A DNA stretch of 28,508 nt from an uncultured Candidatus Saccharimonas sp. (GTDB lineage Bacteria; Patescibacteriota; Saccharimonadia; Saccharimonadales; Saccharimonadaceae). The notes under the pieces are model-generated. The model saw only the letters and a list, made by a program, of their open reading frames with translations. It did not search any database and was not told the origin of the DNA. Positions within the stretch are counted from its first letter, which is position 1. Each line of letters begins with the position of its first letter. Shown piece after piece: positions 2,283 through 23,857 of this stretch. The translations under genes and the position numbers were made by a program. The stretch lies in assembly GCA_964498955.1 (NCBI GenBank), contig CAZCIE010000002.1, forward strand, positions 1 to 28,508, read 5' to 3'.

Positions 2283-4765
2283 TATCATTAAATTGGTTAA
2301 AGAAATTTGTTGATATTGACGTATCGGCCCAGCAGTTAAAAGTTTTAATTGGTTCACGATTGGTTGAAGTCGAAAATATTGTTGATATTGGTCAAAAGTA
2401 CAAGGACGTAGTTATAGTAAAAGTGATTGAATCTAGTAAAATGGAAGGTTCTGACCACTTAAGTGTAATAAAAATCGATGATAATGGCGTCGTCTCAGAC
2501 ATCGAACGAGACGAAAAAGACTTGGTCCAGGTTGTTTGTGGTGCACCAAACATGAGAGCAGGAATAACAGTCGCATGGCTACCTCCAAAATCGGTCGTGC
2601 CTGACACATACGGCACTGCCGACCCATTTGTATTAGACGCCAGGAAACTACGTGGAGTAATGAGCAATGGCATGATTGCTAGCGCAAAAGAGCTCGACAT
2701 ATCAGACGACAATGAAGGAATACTTGAGATTGATGAATCTGTGGGCGCAGGTGTATCATTTGCTAAACAGTATGAGCTGGATGACTATTTGTTTGATATC
2801 GAAAATAAATCATTAACCAGCCGGCCTGATTGTTTTGGTATCATAGGCTTTGCTCGAGAAGTATCGGCGATATTAGGAAAAAAATTTACAAATCCTGATT
2901 GGTTTTTAAACACAAACATACAAGACGTAGGTCAATCTCGTGACACTCCCATTAATGTGACTATCGAAGATGAGACTCTTTCTTCTCGCTATTTGGCAGT
3001 TGTCATGGACGGCATTTCGGTCTTGAAGCAGTCGACTTTAATTATTCAAACTTATTTATCGCGTATGGGCGTAAGGCCAATTAATGCAATTGTTGATGTA
3101 ACAAATTACTTAATGTTATTAACTGGTCAGCCGCTTCATGCTTTTGATTATGATAAATTGGTAAATCTATGCGGCGAGGTTATTAATATCCATGTACGTT
3201 TAGGGAAAGAAGGCGAAAAACTTGAACTTCTTGATGGAAAGACAATTGAACTTTCGACTGAGGATATCGTAATCTCAGCTGGTAAAAATGCGATAGCCCT
3301 AGCCGGAGCAATGGGTGGTTTAAATACTACAATTGACGAAAATACTAAAAGAATTGTCATTGAAAGTGCTTCATTTGACCTTTACCGTTTACGTGCGACT
3401 CAGATGAGGCATGGGATATTTAGTGAGGCTATAACACGATTTACAAAAGGTCAGACCGCTGGCTTAACGGCGCCGGTAATAGGACAGGCGACTCAAATGA
3501 TTTCAGAACTTACAGGTGCAAAATGTGCTAGCCCAATTGCTGAAGATTACCCGGTTGTCCAGTTACCAATTAAAATTGACCTTGACGTATCAAAGATTAA
3601 TACAGTTCTTGGTAGCAACTTTGAAAAGGATACAGTACAAAAAGTTCTTGAAAATGTAGGTTTTTCTATTACTCATAAAATTAGTGGACTAATGACGACA
3701 ACTGTGCCATATTTTAGAAGTGACGTTCATATCCTTGAGGATATTATTGAAGAGGTTGGACGTATTGCTGGCTTTGATAATATTAAACCAACGTTACCGG
3801 TTCGTGAATGCATTGGCGTTAAGCCAGACGATTTTGATATTTTTAGGTCAAATCTTCGAAGGACTTTAGCGAAAGCTGGTGCAAACGAAGTACTGTCGTA
3901 TAGTTTCGTGAATGCTGATAATATTAAAAAAGCAGGTCAGGATCTAACAAACTCTTATCGAATAATCAATTCAATTAGTCCTGATCTTCAATATTACAGA
4001 CAATCATTATCTCCGAATCTTTTGGGATTCGCATATTCAAATGTGAAACAAGGATACGACAACTTTGCATTATTCGAGATTAATAAAGTCCATCAAAAGG
4101 ATATTGGTTTAAATGATGAAAGTGTGCCAAATGAGATAGAATCGCTTGCTTTGGTAATTACAAATAAAAACCCAGGGTCTGGTGCTGCATATTACCGAGC
4201 AAAAAGATTACTTGACATGTTGTCCAAGACGGCTGCGGTCGACTTAGTATACGAGACAATAGAAGAGGGCTGCAATGACCCATCGGCAGTAATTTTTGAC
4301 CCAAATAGGTCGGCGAAAGTTATTAACAAATTAACCAATGCAATAGTTGGTTATGTAGGAGAGTATAAAAAATCTGTCATTAATGGGTTCAAGATTCCAG
4401 AATATAGTTCAGGTTTCGAAATAAATTCAAGGACATTGTTTGTGCCAACAAACAAGATAATTAGCTCATATTCACATATGAGTAAATATCCTGGCACGGA
4501 AAGAGATATGTGTTTTAAGGTAGCTGACGATATTTGCTATAATCAGGTCAATGATGCGATTTACCGAGTATTGTCAAAGACAAATTACAAAACAGAGGTT
4601 CTACCGGTCGATATTTATAAGCAGCTTGAAACAACTACGAAAAATATTACGGTTCGTGTAAAAATTACGGCGTTTGACCATACACTAACCAGAGATGAAA
4701 TTGCTGAAGTTATAGATAATGTCTGCAAGTCAGTAATATCAGCAACAAATGCCGTTATTGTTTGA
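2276..4765 (+). CDS. pheT: Phenylalanine-tRNA ligase beta subunit
   Basis: MLVSLNWLK start, VVCGAPN tRNA-binding OB fold, SRPDCFGIIGFARE, B3/4 domain, DILEEVGR-like motif (DIIEEVGR) and C-terminal YPGTERD ferredoxin-like domain. Overlaps pheS. Confidence 0.98.
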   Translation: MLVSLNWLKKFVDIDVSAQQLKVLIGSRLVEVENIVDIGQKYKDVVIVKVIESSKMEGSDHLSVIKIDDNGVVSDIERDEKDLVQVVCGAPNMRAGITVAWLPPKSVVPDTYGTADPFVLDARKLRGVMSNGMIASAKELDISDDNEGILEIDESVGAGVSFAKQYELDDYLFDIENKSLTSRPDCFGIIGFAREVSAILGKKFTNPDWFLNTNIQDVGQSRDTPINVTIEDETLSSRYLAVVMDGISVLKQSTLIIQTYLSRMGVRPINAIVDVTNYLMLLTGQPLHAFDYDKLVNLCGEVINIHVRLGKEGEKLELLDGKTIELSTEDIVISAGKNAIALAGAMGGLNTTIDENTKRIVIESASFDLYRLRATQMRHGIFSEAITRFTKGQTAGLTAPVIGQATQMISELTGAKCASPIAEDYPVVQLPIKIDLDVSKINTVLGSNFEKDTVQKVLENVGFSITHKISGLMTTTVPYFRSDVHILEDIIEEVGRIAGFDNIKPTLPVRECIGVKPDDFDIFRSNLRRTLAKAGANEVLSYSFVNADNIKKAGQDLTNSYRIINSISPDLQYYRQSLSPNLLGFAYSNVKQGYDNFALFEINKVHQKDIGLNDESVPNEIESLALVITNKNPGSGAAYYRAKRLLDMLSKTAAVDLVYETIEEGCNDPSAVIFDPNRSAKVINKLTNAIVGYVGEYKKSVINGFKIPEYSSGFEINSRTLFVPTNKIISSYSHMSKYPGTERDMCFKVADDICYNQVNDAIYRVLSKTNYKTEVLPVDIYKQLETTTKNITVRVKITAFDHTLTRDEIAEVIDNVCKSVISATNAVIV

Positions 4766-18685: not shown

Positions 18686-18714
18686 AACAAGAGGCTATAA
18701 CAACCTCTTGTTTT
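18686..18714 (+). terminator. Intrinsic terminator after the DEAD-box helicase
   Basis: AACAAGAGG (18686-18694) / CCTCTTGTT (18704-18712) inverted repeat ending in TTTT. Confidence 0.75.
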
Positions 18715-18718
18715 GATG

Positions 18719-18724
18719 TATAAT
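18719..18724 (+). promoter_or_regulatory. -10 box for the gat operon (probably leaderless)
   Basis: TATAAT 8 nt before gatC ATG 18733, with no SD. Confidence 0.6.
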
Positions 18725-18732
18725 ATCTGCAT

Positions 18733-19023
18733 ATGACACAAATAACCCGCGAGGATGTGCTGCATCTGGCACAGTTATCTAGCTTGAAGCTAACAGATGA
18801 AGAAATTTCTAGATTGCAAAATGACATTACCAATATTTTGGGATATGTTGATCTGTTGAAAAGTTTGAATACAGAAGGTGTTGAGCCAACTTATCAAGTA
18901 ACAGGCCTATCGAATGTATGGCGAGAAGATAAGATTATTGATTATGGCCTATCGCGTAATGATTTGCTAAGTCTTGCACCCGAAATTGCAGATAACTCGG
19001 TGAAGGTTCCGAAGGTATTATAA
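18733..19023 (+). CDS. gatC: Asp/Glu-tRNA amidotransferase subunit C
   Basis: ITREDVLHLAQLSSL, ILGYVDLL, TEGVEPT, WRED and VPKVL. TAATG coupling to gatA. Confidence 0.95.
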   Translation: MTQITREDVLHLAQLSSLKLTDEEISRLQNDITNILGYVDLLKSLNTEGVEPTYQVTGLSNVWREDKIIDYGLSRNDLLSLAPEIADNSVKVPKVL

Positions 19024-20408
19024 TGACTACAATTTCAGACATACTTGACCAAATTAAATCGACCTCGGCTCGGTCGGTTGTTGAGCAATCAATTAAAAAA
19101 GCCAAAGACTACAAAGATTATCATGCGTTATTGTGCATGACTGAAAAACGAGCATTAGAGCGTGCAGATGCTGTCGATACTGGCAAAATCACTGGAAAAC
19201 TTGCTGGTGTGCCATTTGTTGTAAAAGATAATTTTTTGGCATTTGGCGCTCCAACATCGGCTGCCAGTAAAATGTTAGAAAATTTTAATGCTCCACTTCA
19301 AGCGACTGCTGTTGAAAAGCTAGAGGCCGAAGGTGCTATTTGTATAGGTAAATCAAACTTAGATGCATTTGCTCATGGTGGAAGTACCGAAAACTCATAT
19401 TTTGGACCCACAAAAAACGCCATAGATGAGTCAAAAGTCGCCGGTGGCTCAAGTGGTGGTTCGGCTGTTGTGACAGCGCTTGATATCGTGCCATTTGCAC
19501 TTGGTAGTGATACGGGCGGTTCAATTCGTCAGCCCGCTAGTTATAATGGTGTTATTGGCATAAAACCAACATATGGCACAGTTAGTCGATACGGTGTTGT
19601 AGCGATGGCAAGCAGTACGGATACAATTGGTGTTTTTTCGAATAATGTTGCTGATGGTGCAACAGTTTTGGATATAATAGCTGGACGTGATAATAATGAT
19701 ATGACAACTTTACCTGATTATTTTAAAGTTTTGCCAGATTCTGTGATTCCGCAAAAAATTGGGTTAATTCGTGATTGGATGACCGAGTCAGTTGATTCTG
19801 ATGTACGCGCGCGAGTTAATGAATACGCTGACAAATTGCGATCAGCCGGCCACACGGTAATCGAAGTCGATTTGCCAATGGCTGAATATGCATTGGCAAT
19901 ATATTATATTGTTACACCTGCTGAAATTTGTAGTAATTTGGCGCGCTATGACGGCATCCGTTATACTCATCGTTCTAATGATGCAAAGTCGCTTACTGAA
20001 TTGTATGGAAAAAGCCGAGACGAAGGTTTTATGACCGAAAACAAGCGTCGAATAATGATCGGCAGCTACGTCTTGTCGAGTGGCTTCTTTGATGCATATT
20101 ACTTGAAGGCTCAAAAAGCCAGAACGTTGTTAATAAATGAATTTGATAAATTATTCGAGAATTTTGATGTTTTAATAGGACCAGTCGCTCCAACAACTGC
20201 CTTTGGTATGGGTGAAAATACAGCTGACCCAATAAAAATGTATCTTGAGGATATTATGACAGTCCCGGCTTCTCTTGCCGGACTGCCAGCAATTAGTGTG
20301 CCTGCTGGTCTGGGCAAAAACGGGTTACCAGTTGGTGTCCAGTTTGTCGGTCCACGTCAAAGTGACTCTAAAATTTTGGCATTAATTAAATCGATGGAGA
20401 ATAAATAA
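19023..20408 (+). CDS. gatA: Asp/Glu-tRNA amidotransferase subunit A
   Basis: VVKDN, GGSSGGSA and GSDTGGSIRQPA amidase signature, NLARYDG. Confidence 0.97.
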   Translation: MTTISDILDQIKSTSARSVVEQSIKKAKDYKDYHALLCMTEKRALERADAVDTGKITGKLAGVPFVVKDNFLAFGAPTSAASKMLENFNAPLQATAVEKLEAEGAICIGKSNLDAFAHGGSTENSYFGPTKNAIDESKVAGGSSGGSAVVTALDIVPFALGSDTGGSIRQPASYNGVIGIKPTYGTVSRYGVVAMASSTDTIGVFSNNVADGATVLDIIAGRDNNDMTTLPDYFKVLPDSVIPQKIGLIRDWMTESVDSDVRARVNEYADKLRSAGHTVIEVDLPMAEYALAIYYIVTPAEICSNLARYDGIRYTHRSNDAKSLTELYGKSRDEGFMTENKRRIMIGSYVLSSGFFDAYYLKAQKARTLLINEFDKLFENFDVLIGPVAPTTAFGMGENTADPIKMYLEDIMTVPASLAGLPAISVPAGLGKNGLPVGVQFVGPRQSDSKILALIKSMENK

Positions 20409-20410
20409 AT

Positions 20411-20830
20411 ATGAACGGCTCAATTATTTTTATGTTTGCTGGAATCTTAACTTTAGGTGCTTTATTTTTTGCAATAATTTGCTTAAACAAAAAAGGTGTA
20501 AGGCGTATTAATGTCGAATATTATCGCACAAAATGCCTAGAGATTGAGCATCAACTTAAACGTGATGAGTCATCCAGCTATTCGATGTGTGTGATTAATG
20601 CCGATAAATTGGTTGATCAGGCGCTTCGCGAGCGTGGTTTCAAAGGAAAAACAATGGCTGAGCGTATGAAAAACAGCGCATCTGTGTTTAGTGATCGAAA
20701 CGGAATCTGGAAAGCTCATATATTACGAAACAAGATATCTCATGAAGTAAATTTTCATGTAACCTACGAAGACGCTTTATATGCACTTGCTGATTTTCGC
20801 AAGGCCCTAAAAGACATCGGAGCAATATAA
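20411..20830 (+). CDS. Hypothetical single-pass membrane protein with HEPN/DUF4145-like RxxxxH motif
   Basis: N-terminal TM helix, then an all-helical domain with ADKLVDQAL, GKTMAERMK and AHILRNKISHE. Starts 2 nt after gatA and is TAATG-coupled to gatB. Confidence 0.8.
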   Translation: MNGSIIFMFAGILTLGALFFAIICLNKKGVRRINVEYYRTKCLEIEHQLKRDESSSYSMCVINADKLVDQALRERGFKGKTMAERMKNSASVFSDRNGIWKAHILRNKISHEVNFHVTYEDALYALADFRKALKDIGAI

Positions 20831-22287
20831 TGAGTCTTGATGATATTACAAGCAAATATGAAATGACAGTTGGAGTTGAATGCCATGTTCAGTTGTCAAC
20901 CAACACAAAATTATTTAGTGGCGCAGATAACGACGAGCGAAACCAGTCACCAAATGCTGTTGTCAGTCCGATTGATTTTGCGCTGCCAGGCATGTTGCCA
21001 GTGTTAAATCGTGGCGCAGTTGATTTAGCAATCAAAGCCGGAAAAGCGTTAAATTGTAAGATTGCAAATATTAGTCGATTTGACCGAAAGCATTATTTTT
21101 ATCCTGATTTACCAAAAGGTTATCAAACGACTCAGATGTACCAACCGATTATTGGTGCTGGTATAATCAATGTGCCGCTTGACGATGGCGGTTCGATTGA
21201 TGTGCGTATAAATCATGCTCACCTAGAAGAGGACGCAGGTAAATTGACCCATTTTAGTGATTATAGTCTAGTTGATATTAACCGTGCAGGTACACCTCTT
21301 ATCGAAATTGTATCCGAACCAGATATTCATTCGGCCGTTCAGGCAAAAGCTTATGCAGCAGAATTGTATCGGTTAATGACTTACGCCGGAGTTACGCGCG
21401 GTGATTTATACCATGGCAATATGCGTTTTGATGTTAATGTATCGGCGGCTTTAAAAGGTTCATCAACACTCGGAACTCGGACTGAAGTAAAAAATCTTAA
21501 TTCATTTAAAAGTGTTGAACGAGCTGCTGAATTTGAGTTTCGTCGTCAAATTGAGATTCTTGAAAAAGGCGAAAAAGTTGTTCAAGAAACACGCGGCTGG
21601 GATGATAACAAGCAAAAAACTACGTCTCAACGCAGTAAAGAGGATGCCCAGGATTATCGTTATATGCCCGATGCAGACATTCCGCCAATTATTTTAACAG
21701 ATGAAGAAATAAAAAAGATTCAATCAACTGTCCCAGCACTACCATCATTTTACAGGGTTGAATGGAAAGATTTTGGCTTAGACAGCACCGTTGTTAACGC
21801 ATTATTATTGTGTCGAGAAAACGCCGAAAAGCTCCAAAGAATTTATAAAAAAGTTAAAGATACACAGGTAGCTAGACGAATTGGGCTTTGGATATCAAAG
21901 ATTGCTGGGAAGCAAAATATTGATGATTTATCGGCAAAATCAGTCACAGTAACTGACCAACAGTTGATTGAACTATCAGAAATGGTTAAAGCCGATGAAT
22001 TAAATTCAAATGCCGTCGATGAAGTATTGTTCGCCATGATGTCGTCTGGTGATAGTCCTAAACAGATTGCAAACGCCAAAAATTTATTACAAGTTAGTGA
22101 CGAAAGTCAAATAACCAAAATTGTCGATGAAATCTTAGGTCTGCCAGAATCAGCCAAAGCTGTCGAGGACATAAAATCTGGAAATGAAAAAGCCATAGGA
22201 TATTTAGTCGGCCAAATTATGCGAAAATCTGCAGGTAAAGCAAACCCTTCAACTGTTCAAAAAATAATTAAAGAAAGGATTAAATAA
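20830..22287 (+). CDS. gatB: Asp/Glu-tRNA amidotransferase subunit B
   Basis: GVECHVQL, RKHYFYPDLPKGYQ, HLEEDAGK, NRAGTPLIEIVSEP, EVKNLNS, YRYMPD and a C-terminal YqeY domain. Confidence 0.98.
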   Translation: MSLDDITSKYEMTVGVECHVQLSTNTKLFSGADNDERNQSPNAVVSPIDFALPGMLPVLNRGAVDLAIKAGKALNCKIANISRFDRKHYFYPDLPKGYQTTQMYQPIIGAGIINVPLDDGGSIDVRINHAHLEEDAGKLTHFSDYSLVDINRAGTPLIEIVSEPDIHSAVQAKAYAAELYRLMTYAGVTRGDLYHGNMRFDVNVSAALKGSSTLGTRTEVKNLNSFKSVERAAEFEFRRQIEILEKGEKVVQETRGWDDNKQKTTSQRSKEDAQDYRYMPDADIPPIILTDEEIKKIQSTVPALPSFYRVEWKDFGLDSTVVNALLLCRENAEKLQRIYKKVKDTQVARRIGLWISKIAGKQNIDDLSAKSVTVTDQQLIELSEMVKADELNSNAVDEVLFAMMSSGDSPKQIANAKNLLQVSDESQITKIVDEILGLPESAKAVEDIKSGNEKAIGYLVGQIMRKSAGKANPSTVQKIIKERIK

Positions 22288-23166
22288 ATGCGCCAACCAA
22301 CAAAAGCAATTATATTAGCAGCAGGTTTTGGGACTAGGTTCTTGCCAGCATGCAAATCAATTCCAAAAGAGATGTTTCCGGTTATTGACAAGCCTGTAAT
22401 TCAGTTAATTGTTGAGCAGGCAGTCGCGTCTGGTGTCAAAGATATTATTATTGTTACTAGCAGCCGAAAACATGCAATTGAAGACCATTTTGATCGTGAC
22501 GAAACACTTGAAAGACAGTTACGAGATAATGGCAAAGACCAAATTGCTGATGAAATTAAAGACATTGCCGAAATGGCCAACTTTATTTATGTGCGGCAAA
22601 AAGGCACCCCAAAAGGAACTGCCAGGCCAATCCTTAACTGCGCACATTTGATTGACGATGACGAGCCATTTTATGTATTCTTTGCGGATGATTTTTATGT
22701 TACCAAAGGCACACCTTGGCCGGCACAATTACAAGAAGCATATAATAAGACTGGTAAAACAGTCATTTCAATGATGGAGATCGACAAAAAAGACGCTGAC
22801 AAATATGCAATTGCTGTATTTGGTGAAAAAATTAATGATCGAGTCTTCCAAATCGAAGAATTAATCGAAAAACCAGGCGCCGATGCTGCCAAGTCAAACT
22901 TTGCTTCAATTAGCGGTTTTTTGTTAACTCCAGACATTTTGCCAATTCTTGAAAAGATTCCAGTTTCAAAAAGTGGTGAAATCTTTCTGGCAGATGGTTT
23001 AAACGAACTTGCAAAAAAAGACAAGATTTATGGTTGCTTTGTCGACGGGGTGCGATATGATACTGGTGACAAATTACTGTATATCAAGGCGATTGTTGAT
23101 TTGGCACTAAATGATGTTCGTTTTAAGGACGATTTGAAACAATATTTAAGAGATAAAATAGCTTAG
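22288..23166 (+). CDS. galU: UTP--glucose-1-phosphate uridylyltransferase
   Basis: AAGFGTRFLPA.K..PKEM, DHFD, VRQ...KG, EKP and RYDTG motifs. Confidence 0.92.
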   Translation: MRQPTKAIILAAGFGTRFLPACKSIPKEMFPVIDKPVIQLIVEQAVASGVKDIIIVTSSRKHAIEDHFDRDETLERQLRDNGKDQIADEIKDIAEMANFIYVRQKGTPKGTARPILNCAHLIDDDEPFYVFFADDFYVTKGTPWPAQLQEAYNKTGKTVISMMEIDKKDADKYAIAVFGEKINDRVFQIEELIEKPGADAAKSNFASISGFLLTPDILPILEKIPVSKSGEIFLADGLNELAKKDKIYGCFVDGVRYDTGDKLLYIKAIVDLALNDVRFKDDLKQYLRDKIA

Positions 23167-23243: not shown

Positions 23244-23498
23244 ATGAACTTTGCAGCAGAAATACTAGTAATAATTTTATCAATCTTTTTAGCGATATTT
23301 TTAATACTGGCAATTATATTGTCAGCTTATCTGATATCGTTAACACGCCAAATTCGTCGCATAACGAATTCGGCTGAACGAACAGTCGACAATATCGGTT
23401 CAGTTGTAAGTGACGTTTCAAAAATCACAACTCCGATGTTTATTGCAGACATGGTTAGTAAATTTGTTAATAAAATGAAGAAAGAAAAAAAGGAGTAA
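23244..23498 (+). CDS. Small membrane protein, DUF948/YtxG-like (84 aa)
   Basis: N-terminal TM helix followed by an amphipathic coiled coil. SD AAAGGA. Adjacent to a YtxH-like gene, the usual pairing. Confidence 0.7.
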   Translation: MNFAAEILVIILSIFLAIFLILAIILSAYLISLTRQIRRITNSAERTVDNIGSVVSDVSKITTPMFIADMVSKFVNKMKKEKKE

Positions 23499-23502
23499 AT
23501 AT

Positions 23503-23811
23503 ATGTCAAAAGGTAAATTTGCATTAGGCGCAATTCTTGGGACAATAGCAGGAGTTGTAACAGGCATATTAACAGCACCAAAAAGCGGAAAAGAAACAAG
23601 GGCGGATATAAAAGCTAAGGCTGCAGAAGTCAAAGAAGATATAACAGAAAAGGCTGAAAAATATTCAGATGAGGCCGAACAAATGTTAGACAAAGCCAAA
23701 GATAAGGCTAAAGAAGTTATAACCGATGTTCAAAAAAGTGCCGAAGATTTAAAAAAACGAACTGAACGAGCCGTCGAAGGCGCGAAAAAAGGCTTTTCTG
23801 ATAAAAATTAA
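23503..23811 (+). CDS. YtxH-domain protein
   Basis: GAILG..AG...GIL.APKSGKETR motif followed by a K/E/A coiled coil. SD AAGGAG. Confidence 0.88.
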   Translation: MSKGKFALGAILGTIAGVVTGILTAPKSGKETRADIKAKAAEVKEDITEKAEKYSDEAEQMLDKAKDKAKEVITDVQKSAEDLKKRTERAVEGAKKGFSDKN

Positions 23812-23825
23812 TTTATTTTGAAAAT

Positions 23826-23857
23826 AATAGCACACAACTTGATTTGTGTGCTATTTT
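23826..23857 (+). terminator. Intrinsic terminator after the YtxH gene
   Basis: 12-bp inverted repeat AATAGCACACAA (23826-23837) / TTGTGTGCTATT (23844-23855) ending in a T run. Confidence 0.8.

Follow-up and report, generated by a model that had tools for sequence, protein, structure and literature searches.

Positions 1 to 28,508 of contig CAZCIE010000002.1 (GenBank assembly GCA_964498955.1, forward strand), from an uncultured Candidatus Saccharimonas sp. (Patescibacteriota; Saccharimonadia), form the window analyzed here. Its subject is a small gene, called X (P0001) in this report, that stands between gatA and gatB in the operon for GatCAB, the transfer RNA (tRNA) transamidation enzyme. 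X is an open reading frame (ORF) of 139 amino acids (aa) at 20411-20830, on the plus strand like every other feature given for the window. Its ATG (20411) comes 2 nucleotides (nt; 20409-20410) after the gatA stop codon (20406-20408), its TAA stop (20828-20830) shares base 20830 with the gatB ATG in the string TAATG (20828-20832), and a Shine-Dalgarno-like GGAG (20396-20399) can be read 11 nt before its start, within the 3' end of gatA. Judged by the gap, the overlap, and the GGAG, X is translationally coupled with gatA and gatB. An earlier note, made from the letters of the window, had given the ORF, the gap, the overlap, and the position of a motif, R106-N-K-I-S-H111 (20726-20743), and all were correct on rereading. 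The amidase-signature subunit gene gatA (19023-20408; 461 aa) was 44-73% identical to the gene that precedes X at related loci, gatC (18733-19023; 96 aa) was syntenic with gatC in all related loci (tblastn), and gatB (20830-22287; 485 aa) was assigned by synteny. The source genome (592 kb, 105 contigs, 76% complete) held one copy of X and one match to GatB_N (E value, 1.2e-109).

The protein was modeled as a single chain with AlphaFold2 from a 30-sequence alignment (predicted local distance difference test [pLDDT], 91; predicted template modeling score [pTM], 0.74). The model contained an N-terminal transmembrane helix (residues 2-25; 20414-20485) and five further helices (residues 35-47, 55-75, 82-88, 96-111, and 119-136), the latter packed as the all-alpha, up-down bundle of about 110 residues that characterizes the HEPN fold (residues 35-139; 20513-20827). 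Foldseek against PDB placed the HEPN protein AF_0298 first (2hsb; E value, 0.025; probability, 1.00), followed by HEPN toxins and homologues (7ae6_B, 1wty, 7bxo, 1o3u, 1wol, and 1ufb). With VIA-align (48,161 chains), 2hsb again led (Z, 11.3), followed by the HepT protein SO_3166 (5yep_B; 10.2), 1wwp (10.2), 1ylm (10.0), and the HEPN toxins 8xdj (9.9) and 7ae2 (9.7), and then by the HEPN domains of Roquin and sacsin and the HEPN-like C-domains of ANT(4'); GlnE domains were likewise among the matches. Swiss-Prot models matching X were those of AF_0298, the putative toxin MJ0142, the putative ribonuclease (RNase) AF_2433, and TM_1000, and the AlphaFold DB clusters found were of 141-aa proteins (35% identity; TM, 0.82) that carry the automatic name "DUF4145 domain-containing." The HEPN fold that the earlier note had proposed for this domain is thereby supported at the level of the model.

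At the sequence level, X itself had zero useful matches in Pfam, NCBIfam, and PADLOC scans. When family members were scanned singly, the recurrent weak Pfam matches were all to families of the HEPN clan, namely, RiboL-PSP-HEPN (12 of 30; best, 6.7e-4), Hypoth_Ymh (9 of 30; best, 1.9e-4, in the diverse set), Swt1-HEPN (12 of 53), and Cthe_2314-HEPN (3 of 53). A profile search of PDB sequences did not find HEPN; its best match, 37 residues of a cytochrome chaperone (E value, 0.06), was taken as chance. The Pfam DUF4145 model (PF13643) missed X in the source genome at E values of ≤10. Across 151 genomes of the phylum this model matched in only 16, and wherever the coordinates of both were listed (G018, G178, G215, G219, and G258) the match was at a locus other than that of X. 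A profile of ten genuine DUF4145 domains from Patescibacteria was then aligned with the X family using hhalign, which gave a probability of 89.5% (P = 2e-6; 83 columns; X residues 54-136; reversed-template control, 0.1%), with N107 and H111 on the (G/R)N-x3-H motif and D69 on a conserved Glu in the first helix of DUF4145. The DUF4145 affiliation suggested in the earlier note therefore stands in profile-profile comparison and falls with the Pfam model itself. Although X shares the motif and the acidic residue with DUF4145, and its relatives are named "DUF4145 domain-containing" by both AlphaFold DB and ProtNLM, it is a core, gatCAB-linked gene, whereas genuine DUF4145 genes are patchy and lie at other loci. 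Ten of the latter (L161-L170) were collected; proteins of this kind occurred in about 10% of the sampled Patescibacteria genomes, at loci unrelated to gatCAB, and carried either R-x2-G-N-x3-H or R-N-x3-H.

HEPN sequences are marked by Rx4-6H, in which the Arg is followed by a polar residue (N, D, or H), and by a second conserved residue that is acidic and typically part of Ex3[KR] (Anantharaman et al. 2013; PMC3710099). X has all three features, with Asp replacing Glu in the last (D69-x3-K/R73). The conserved helix-2 motif, D65-K-L-V-D69-x3-R73, is encoded at 20603-20629 and the predicted active-site helix, W100-x-A-H103-x-L-R106-N107-x-x-x-H111-E112, at 20708-20746. W100, A102, H103, L105, R106, N107, and H111 were invariant in 30 Saccharibacteria sequences. 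Conservation was then counted in 145 representatives of the family, each from a different 50%-identity cluster: D65 was present in 144, G79 in 143, H103 in 142, W100 in 141, R106 in 138, N107 in 137, H111 and E/D112 in 135 each, D69 in 132, and K/R73 in 108, and RNxxxH was kept in 135. The Arg and His that the earlier note had singled out as catalytic are thus held across the family. The closest solved relatives are the minimal HEPN proteins of clan CL0291, AF_0298 (2hsb)/UPF0332 and HepT (SO_3166, 5yep; 7ae2 and 8xdj), which X resembles in domain size, in its up-down bundle (Z, 9.7-11.3), in an Rx4H with Asn after the Arg on the penultimate helix, and in an acidic-x3-basic element on an earlier helix. 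H103 has its like in the AF_0298 group, where an extra conserved His lies N-terminal to the motif (PMC3710099). X differs from these minimal proteins in its membrane anchor, in having neither an MNT partner nor the Tyr of RX4HXY, and in an identity to them of only 8-18%.

A word-indexed search returned 172 homologues of X, nearly all of 132-142 aa and 55-88% identical, named "hypothetical" and derived from Saccharibacteria or Patescibacteria. An exhaustive search of 1.84 billion cluster representatives returned 1814 clusters (50% identity) at E values of ≤1e-3, nearly all of 125-190 aa and matched full-length, and 364 at ≤1e-10. In a sample of 151 genomes from the class, 143 had a match to X, nearly always in exactly one copy; for the high-quality genomes of the class the count was 118 of 124. 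Among 301 genomes sampled from the phylum (tallies that, for X and GatB_N alike, include one unpublished genome, G293), 192 had X, covering 156 of 248 genera, with two copies in some families. A locus search with a narrow X alignment gave Saccharibacteria only and is uninformative about the range outside the phylum. Because 172 homologues share its length, 1814 clusters exist, and 143 of 151 genomes of the class carry it as a single copy, X is a real and constrained gene, far beyond a chance ORF. It is a family of its own within the HEPN superfamily, nearest to a DUF4145-like branch, and is without a curated model.

The single N-terminal transmembrane helix and the basic stretch behind it (KKGVRR, residues 27-32; 20489-20506) were both in the earlier note, which had placed the C-domain in the cytoplasm; the model and the family agree with it. 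Of the 145 representatives, 134 had a strongly hydrophobic 19-mer, preceded by a median of 4 residues. K/R averaged 4.3 in the 15 residues following the transmembrane segment and 0.3 ahead of it. Because this charge bias satisfies the positive-inside rule in 140 of the 145, the helical domain is predicted to face the cytoplasm, with the N-terminus (about 4 residues) outside; X would thus be held in the membrane by one helix, with its HEPN-fold domain of about 105 residues inside the cell. The transmembrane sequence itself was poorly conserved. Anantharaman et al. 2013 (PMC3710099, section 15) predicted that bacterial HEPN domains associated with the membrane process RNA at its inner face, and X shares with those groups a single transmembrane helix followed by a cytoplasmic, motif-bearing HEPN domain. 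It is distinct from their membrane-anchored DUF4145-like group, which has a strictly conserved WP in the transmembrane segment, whereas only 1 of the 145 X representatives has WP within its first 40 residues. None of the three membrane groups was described with a gatCAB context, and the word "amidotransferase" is absent from the text of that paper.

Synteny was followed by tblastn with the GatC, GatA, X, GatB, and GalU-like proteins of the window. The order gatA-X-gatB, whose conservation the earlier note had left to be checked, was present in 29 of 29 loci from the same and neighboring families and in all 20 genomes taken from farther away within the class (one seen through a profile match only). 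In other families of the phylum, X followed gatA in 17 of 20 loci. In 13 of those 17, gatB came next, and in four (L055, L057, L061, and L063) it was not within 4 kb; the remaining 3 of the 20 had no gat gene nearby, one of them being truncated where its contig ends. X and gatB shared a contig in 64 genomes outside the class; they lay ≤150 nt apart in 42, ≤2.5 kb apart in 16, and farther apart in 6. The RNA search (two runs with 5% of sampled words) yielded one exact contig across the gatA/X junction: a 224-nt contig from a wastewater RNA library that matches 20272-20495 with zero mismatches. Since DNA carry-over into an RNA library is possible, this lends weak support to cotranscription. Coexpression of X with the gat genes is firmly conserved, and from it a mechanistic tie to transamidation may be suspected.

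Wang et al. 2023 (Cell; PMC10633639) published transposon sequencing (Tn-seq) data for the Saccharibacterium Southlakia epibionticum ML1, in which X has a positional counterpart. Table S1 of that study lists SEML1_0535, a 420-bp "hypothetical protein" gene between gatA (SEML1_0536) and gatB (SEML1_0534), flagged "core family" and "Patescibacteria enriched," and scored as growth defect at T0, growth defect at T1, and essential at T2 (normalized reads, 126.6, 5.9, and 2.8). In the same data, the downstream nucleoside triphosphate (NTP)-transferase gene was nonessential (about 1600-2000 reads), as were all of SEML1_0531 to SEML1_0533, which follow the order of the GalU-like, small transmembrane, and YtxH-like genes of the window. 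Table S2 gives SEML1_0535 the ProtNLM name "DUF4145 domain-containing protein" (0.98) and the ECOD domain e1wtyA1 over residues 26-135, "Nucleotidyltransferase substrate binding subunit/domain." The main text of the study mentions neither HEPN nor gatA. SEML1_0535 and X agree in length (420 bp), in position between gatA and gatB, and in neighborhood (uvrB ... gatC-gatA-X-gatB-NTP transferase-small gene-YtxH); the difference is that SEML1_0535 figures in supplementary tables only, as a hypothetical protein.

The earlier note had also raised a membrane-gated dormancy or defense effector, that is, a toxin-like protein of abortive infection whose RNase is silent at the membrane until released by envelope stress or phage. 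The closest solved structures do include HepT toxins of HEPN-MNT systems (5yep_B, 7ae2, and 8xdj), most prokaryotic HEPN families belong to conflict systems (PMC3710099), and the membrane anchor could serve as a sensor. Yet X is single copy, near universal in its class, and fixed in an essential operon, whereas HepT/MntA pairs are mobile two-gene toxin-antitoxin modules with a patchy, often multicopy distribution. Within the phylum it is genuine DUF4145 that shows the pattern of a conflict gene (16 of 151 genomes, nonsyntenic), and DUF4145 proteins are linked to restriction-modification, helicase, or Abi contexts (PMC3710099, Table 1); X is the opposite. In HepT, MntA adenylylates the Tyr of RX4HXY (Yao et al. 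2020; PMC7641770), and X lacks that site: the residue at H+2 across its family is V, A, L, T, P, or another, with Tyr outside the eight commonest. The neighbors of X are gatA and gatB, with no MNT gene beside it, as the earlier note had observed, and PF01909 had no match in the 76%-complete genome. PADLOC returned nothing for X, and transposon insertions in the S. epibionticum counterpart were lost rather than tolerated. A toxin or defense role is largely refuted already, and we consider it highly improbable. X behaves instead as a housekeeping gene, because it is a single-copy core gene at a fixed position in gatCAB.

The best explanation, in our view, is that X is a housekeeping, membrane-tethered, cytoplasm-facing HEPN endoribonuclease coexpressed with GatCAB, and we put the chances of this being right and of its being wrong as equal. 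X retains a full HEPN catalytic signature: R106, N107, and H111; the invariant H103 and W100, which lie on the helix of that motif; and D69-x3-K/R73 on another. From this we infer an active, metal-independent endoribonuclease. By analogy with solved HEPN enzymes, X would dimerize, and R106, N107, and H111 would together create a composite site, H103 lying on the same side of the helix; RNA would be cut without metal, leaving 2',3'-cyclic phosphate ends. Made from the same coupled message as GatC, GatA, and GatB, it would probably process, turn over, or survey RNA on the cytoplasmic side of the membrane. Because X is coexpressed with a tRNA transamidation enzyme, our first guess at its substrate is tRNA or another RNA linked to translation; a direct functional tie between X and GatCAB is possible, but we lean toward doubting it. 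The idea that X stands in for a missing membrane RNase was considered and set aside: S. epibionticum has RNase Y (nonessential), RNase J, and RNase III, and a simple replacement is unlikely.

Several points weigh against an endoribonuclease tied to GatCAB. Helical bundles reach middling structural Z-scores by chance, but the fold call stands because the top matches are uniformly HEPN and the motif lies on the penultimate helix, as it does in HEPN. SEML1_0535 was paired with X from its position, its length, and its annotation rather than its sequence, and its depletion is possibly a polar effect on the essential gatB. GatB_N was found in 296 of the 301 phylum genomes, against 192 for X; because a third of the sample has GatB_N and no detectable X, X is not needed by GatCAB in general and is not an obligate subunit. 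X has been lost from a complete genome of the same order (G044; locus L151, G044:C1:343911-350262), in which gatA overlaps gatB directly. Finally, unrelated genes share the operon (a cyclophilin between gatA and X in other classes; the GalU-like gene after gatB), so gene order alone is no proof of a functional tie.

At L151, gatA lies at 2388-3803 and gatB at 940-2391, and the small transmembrane gene and the YtxH-like gene downstream are retained. Nine other X-less genomes were inspected: gatC, gatA, and gatB stood together in two, and gatB was unlinked from gatA in seven (L152-L155 and L158-L160). In this small sample, loss of X and breakup of the gatCAB operon seem to go together.

The main competing possibility is that X is a noncatalytic adaptor or regulator, whose HEPN domain binds nucleotide, tRNA, or GatCAB and tethers or tunes the transamidation machinery at the membrane. 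Translational coupling with gatA and gatB, synteny throughout the phylum, and the split operons in which X stays with gatA (L055, L057, L061, and L063) would all suit such a part. So would the use of HEPN-fold domains as substrate-binding modules in nucleotidyltransferases, which is the ECOD class of the S. epibionticum counterpart and is echoed by the ANT(4') and GlnE matches. However, HEPN families without catalysis typically lose Rx4-6H (Anantharaman et al. 2013; PMC3710099), whereas the X family keeps RNxxxH in 135 of 145 representatives together with H103, W100, and D65, and in a third of the phylum sample, as in one X-less relative, GatCAB functions with no X. We regard an adaptor as unlikely and retain the endoribonuclease as the preferred account of X. 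A narrower form of that account, which we find rather improbable, would make X a dedicated partner of indirect aminoacylation, a membrane-tethered HEPN tRNase, produced in step with GatCAB, that cuts or holds tRNA-Gln or tRNA-Asn; its targets might be, for example, mischarged Glu-tRNA-Gln or Asp-tRNA-Asn escaping transamidation. If true, this would be an RNA-level safeguard of translation fidelity in Patescibacteria, known in no other bacteria.

To our knowledge, nearly all prokaryotic HEPN RNases that have been studied are weapons or suicide switches, whether in toxin-antitoxin pairs, in abortive infection, or as CRISPR accessories. X, by contrast, is a single-copy, strongly constrained core gene of its phylum that sits within the essential gatCAB operon, and it was depleted in the one Tn-seq data set available for Patescibacteria. 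Should it prove an active RNase, it would be a rare housekeeping HEPN enzyme of bacteria and, in the ultrasmall episymbionts, a lineage-specific component of either RNA metabolism or translation; about half the essential genes of these bacteria lack a known function. It is also directly testable, being small, with a soluble domain that is likely easy to express and with a genetic system at hand in Saccharibacteria. The HEPN fold and the idea of membrane-associated HEPN RNases are already known (PMC3710099, section 15). In the literature searched, HEPN with gatCAB, or a transmembrane HEPN in Patescibacteria, was not found described together, and the distinct uncurated family, its core status across the phylum, its fixed place in gatCAB, and its apparent essentiality appear to be undescribed.

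Other genes accompany X in parts of the phylum. In several other classes of Patescibacteria a cyclophilin-type peptidyl-prolyl isomerase (PF00160; E values, 1e-43 to 1e-49) lies between gatA and X (L051:3230-3985, L056:3366-3986, L060:4726-5475 [minus strand], L066:3270-3926, and L068:4455-5357 [minus strand]). It is a second membrane protein within the gatCAB operon, and because it has a basic N-terminus and one transmembrane helix, its enzyme domain is probably turned outward. In two lineages, at L057 (3370-3954) and L063 (3360-3947), the cyclophilin is replaced by a protein of about 195 aa without a Pfam family, the two having similar C-terminal ends. L065 (3372-3980) and L069 (4399-5010, minus strand) are two of the loci in which the search showed no gat gene around X. 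In both, X is preceded by a related membrane protein of about 200 aa that may be an alternative conserved neighbor; the sequences begin MSHKKKK... and MLQNFFFGRH..., and in L065 the contig stops 0.6 kb downstream. In L055, L061, and L063, which have no gatB behind X, the next gene, judged by eye, encodes a multipass membrane protein of about 240-265 aa, and in L055 and L061 this is followed by a thioredoxin-reductase-like flavoprotein, also assigned by eye. Several families of the phylum had two X matches per genome; in one GC-rich genome a second, weak X-like match (L053:7721-7996; 23% identity; ORF unclear) lay 3.3 kb downstream of the copy in gatCAB.

In the window itself, gatB is followed directly by an NTP-transferase (GalU-like) gene (22288-23166), labeled after the "NTP transferase domain-containing protein" annotated in the same gene order in S. 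epibionticum, and then by genes for a small transmembrane protein (84 aa) and a YtxH-like protein (102 aa) at 23244-23811. A promoter-like site, ATAACA-16-TATAAT (18697-18724), stands just before gatC as a consensus match only, and such sites were no commoner in the region than in shuffled sequence. A terminator-like hairpin with a 12-bp stem and a T-run (23826-23855), likewise a consensus call, is the first strong one on the plus strand and comes after the YtxH-like gene; going by its position, a single transcription unit may extend from gatC through the YtxH-like gene.

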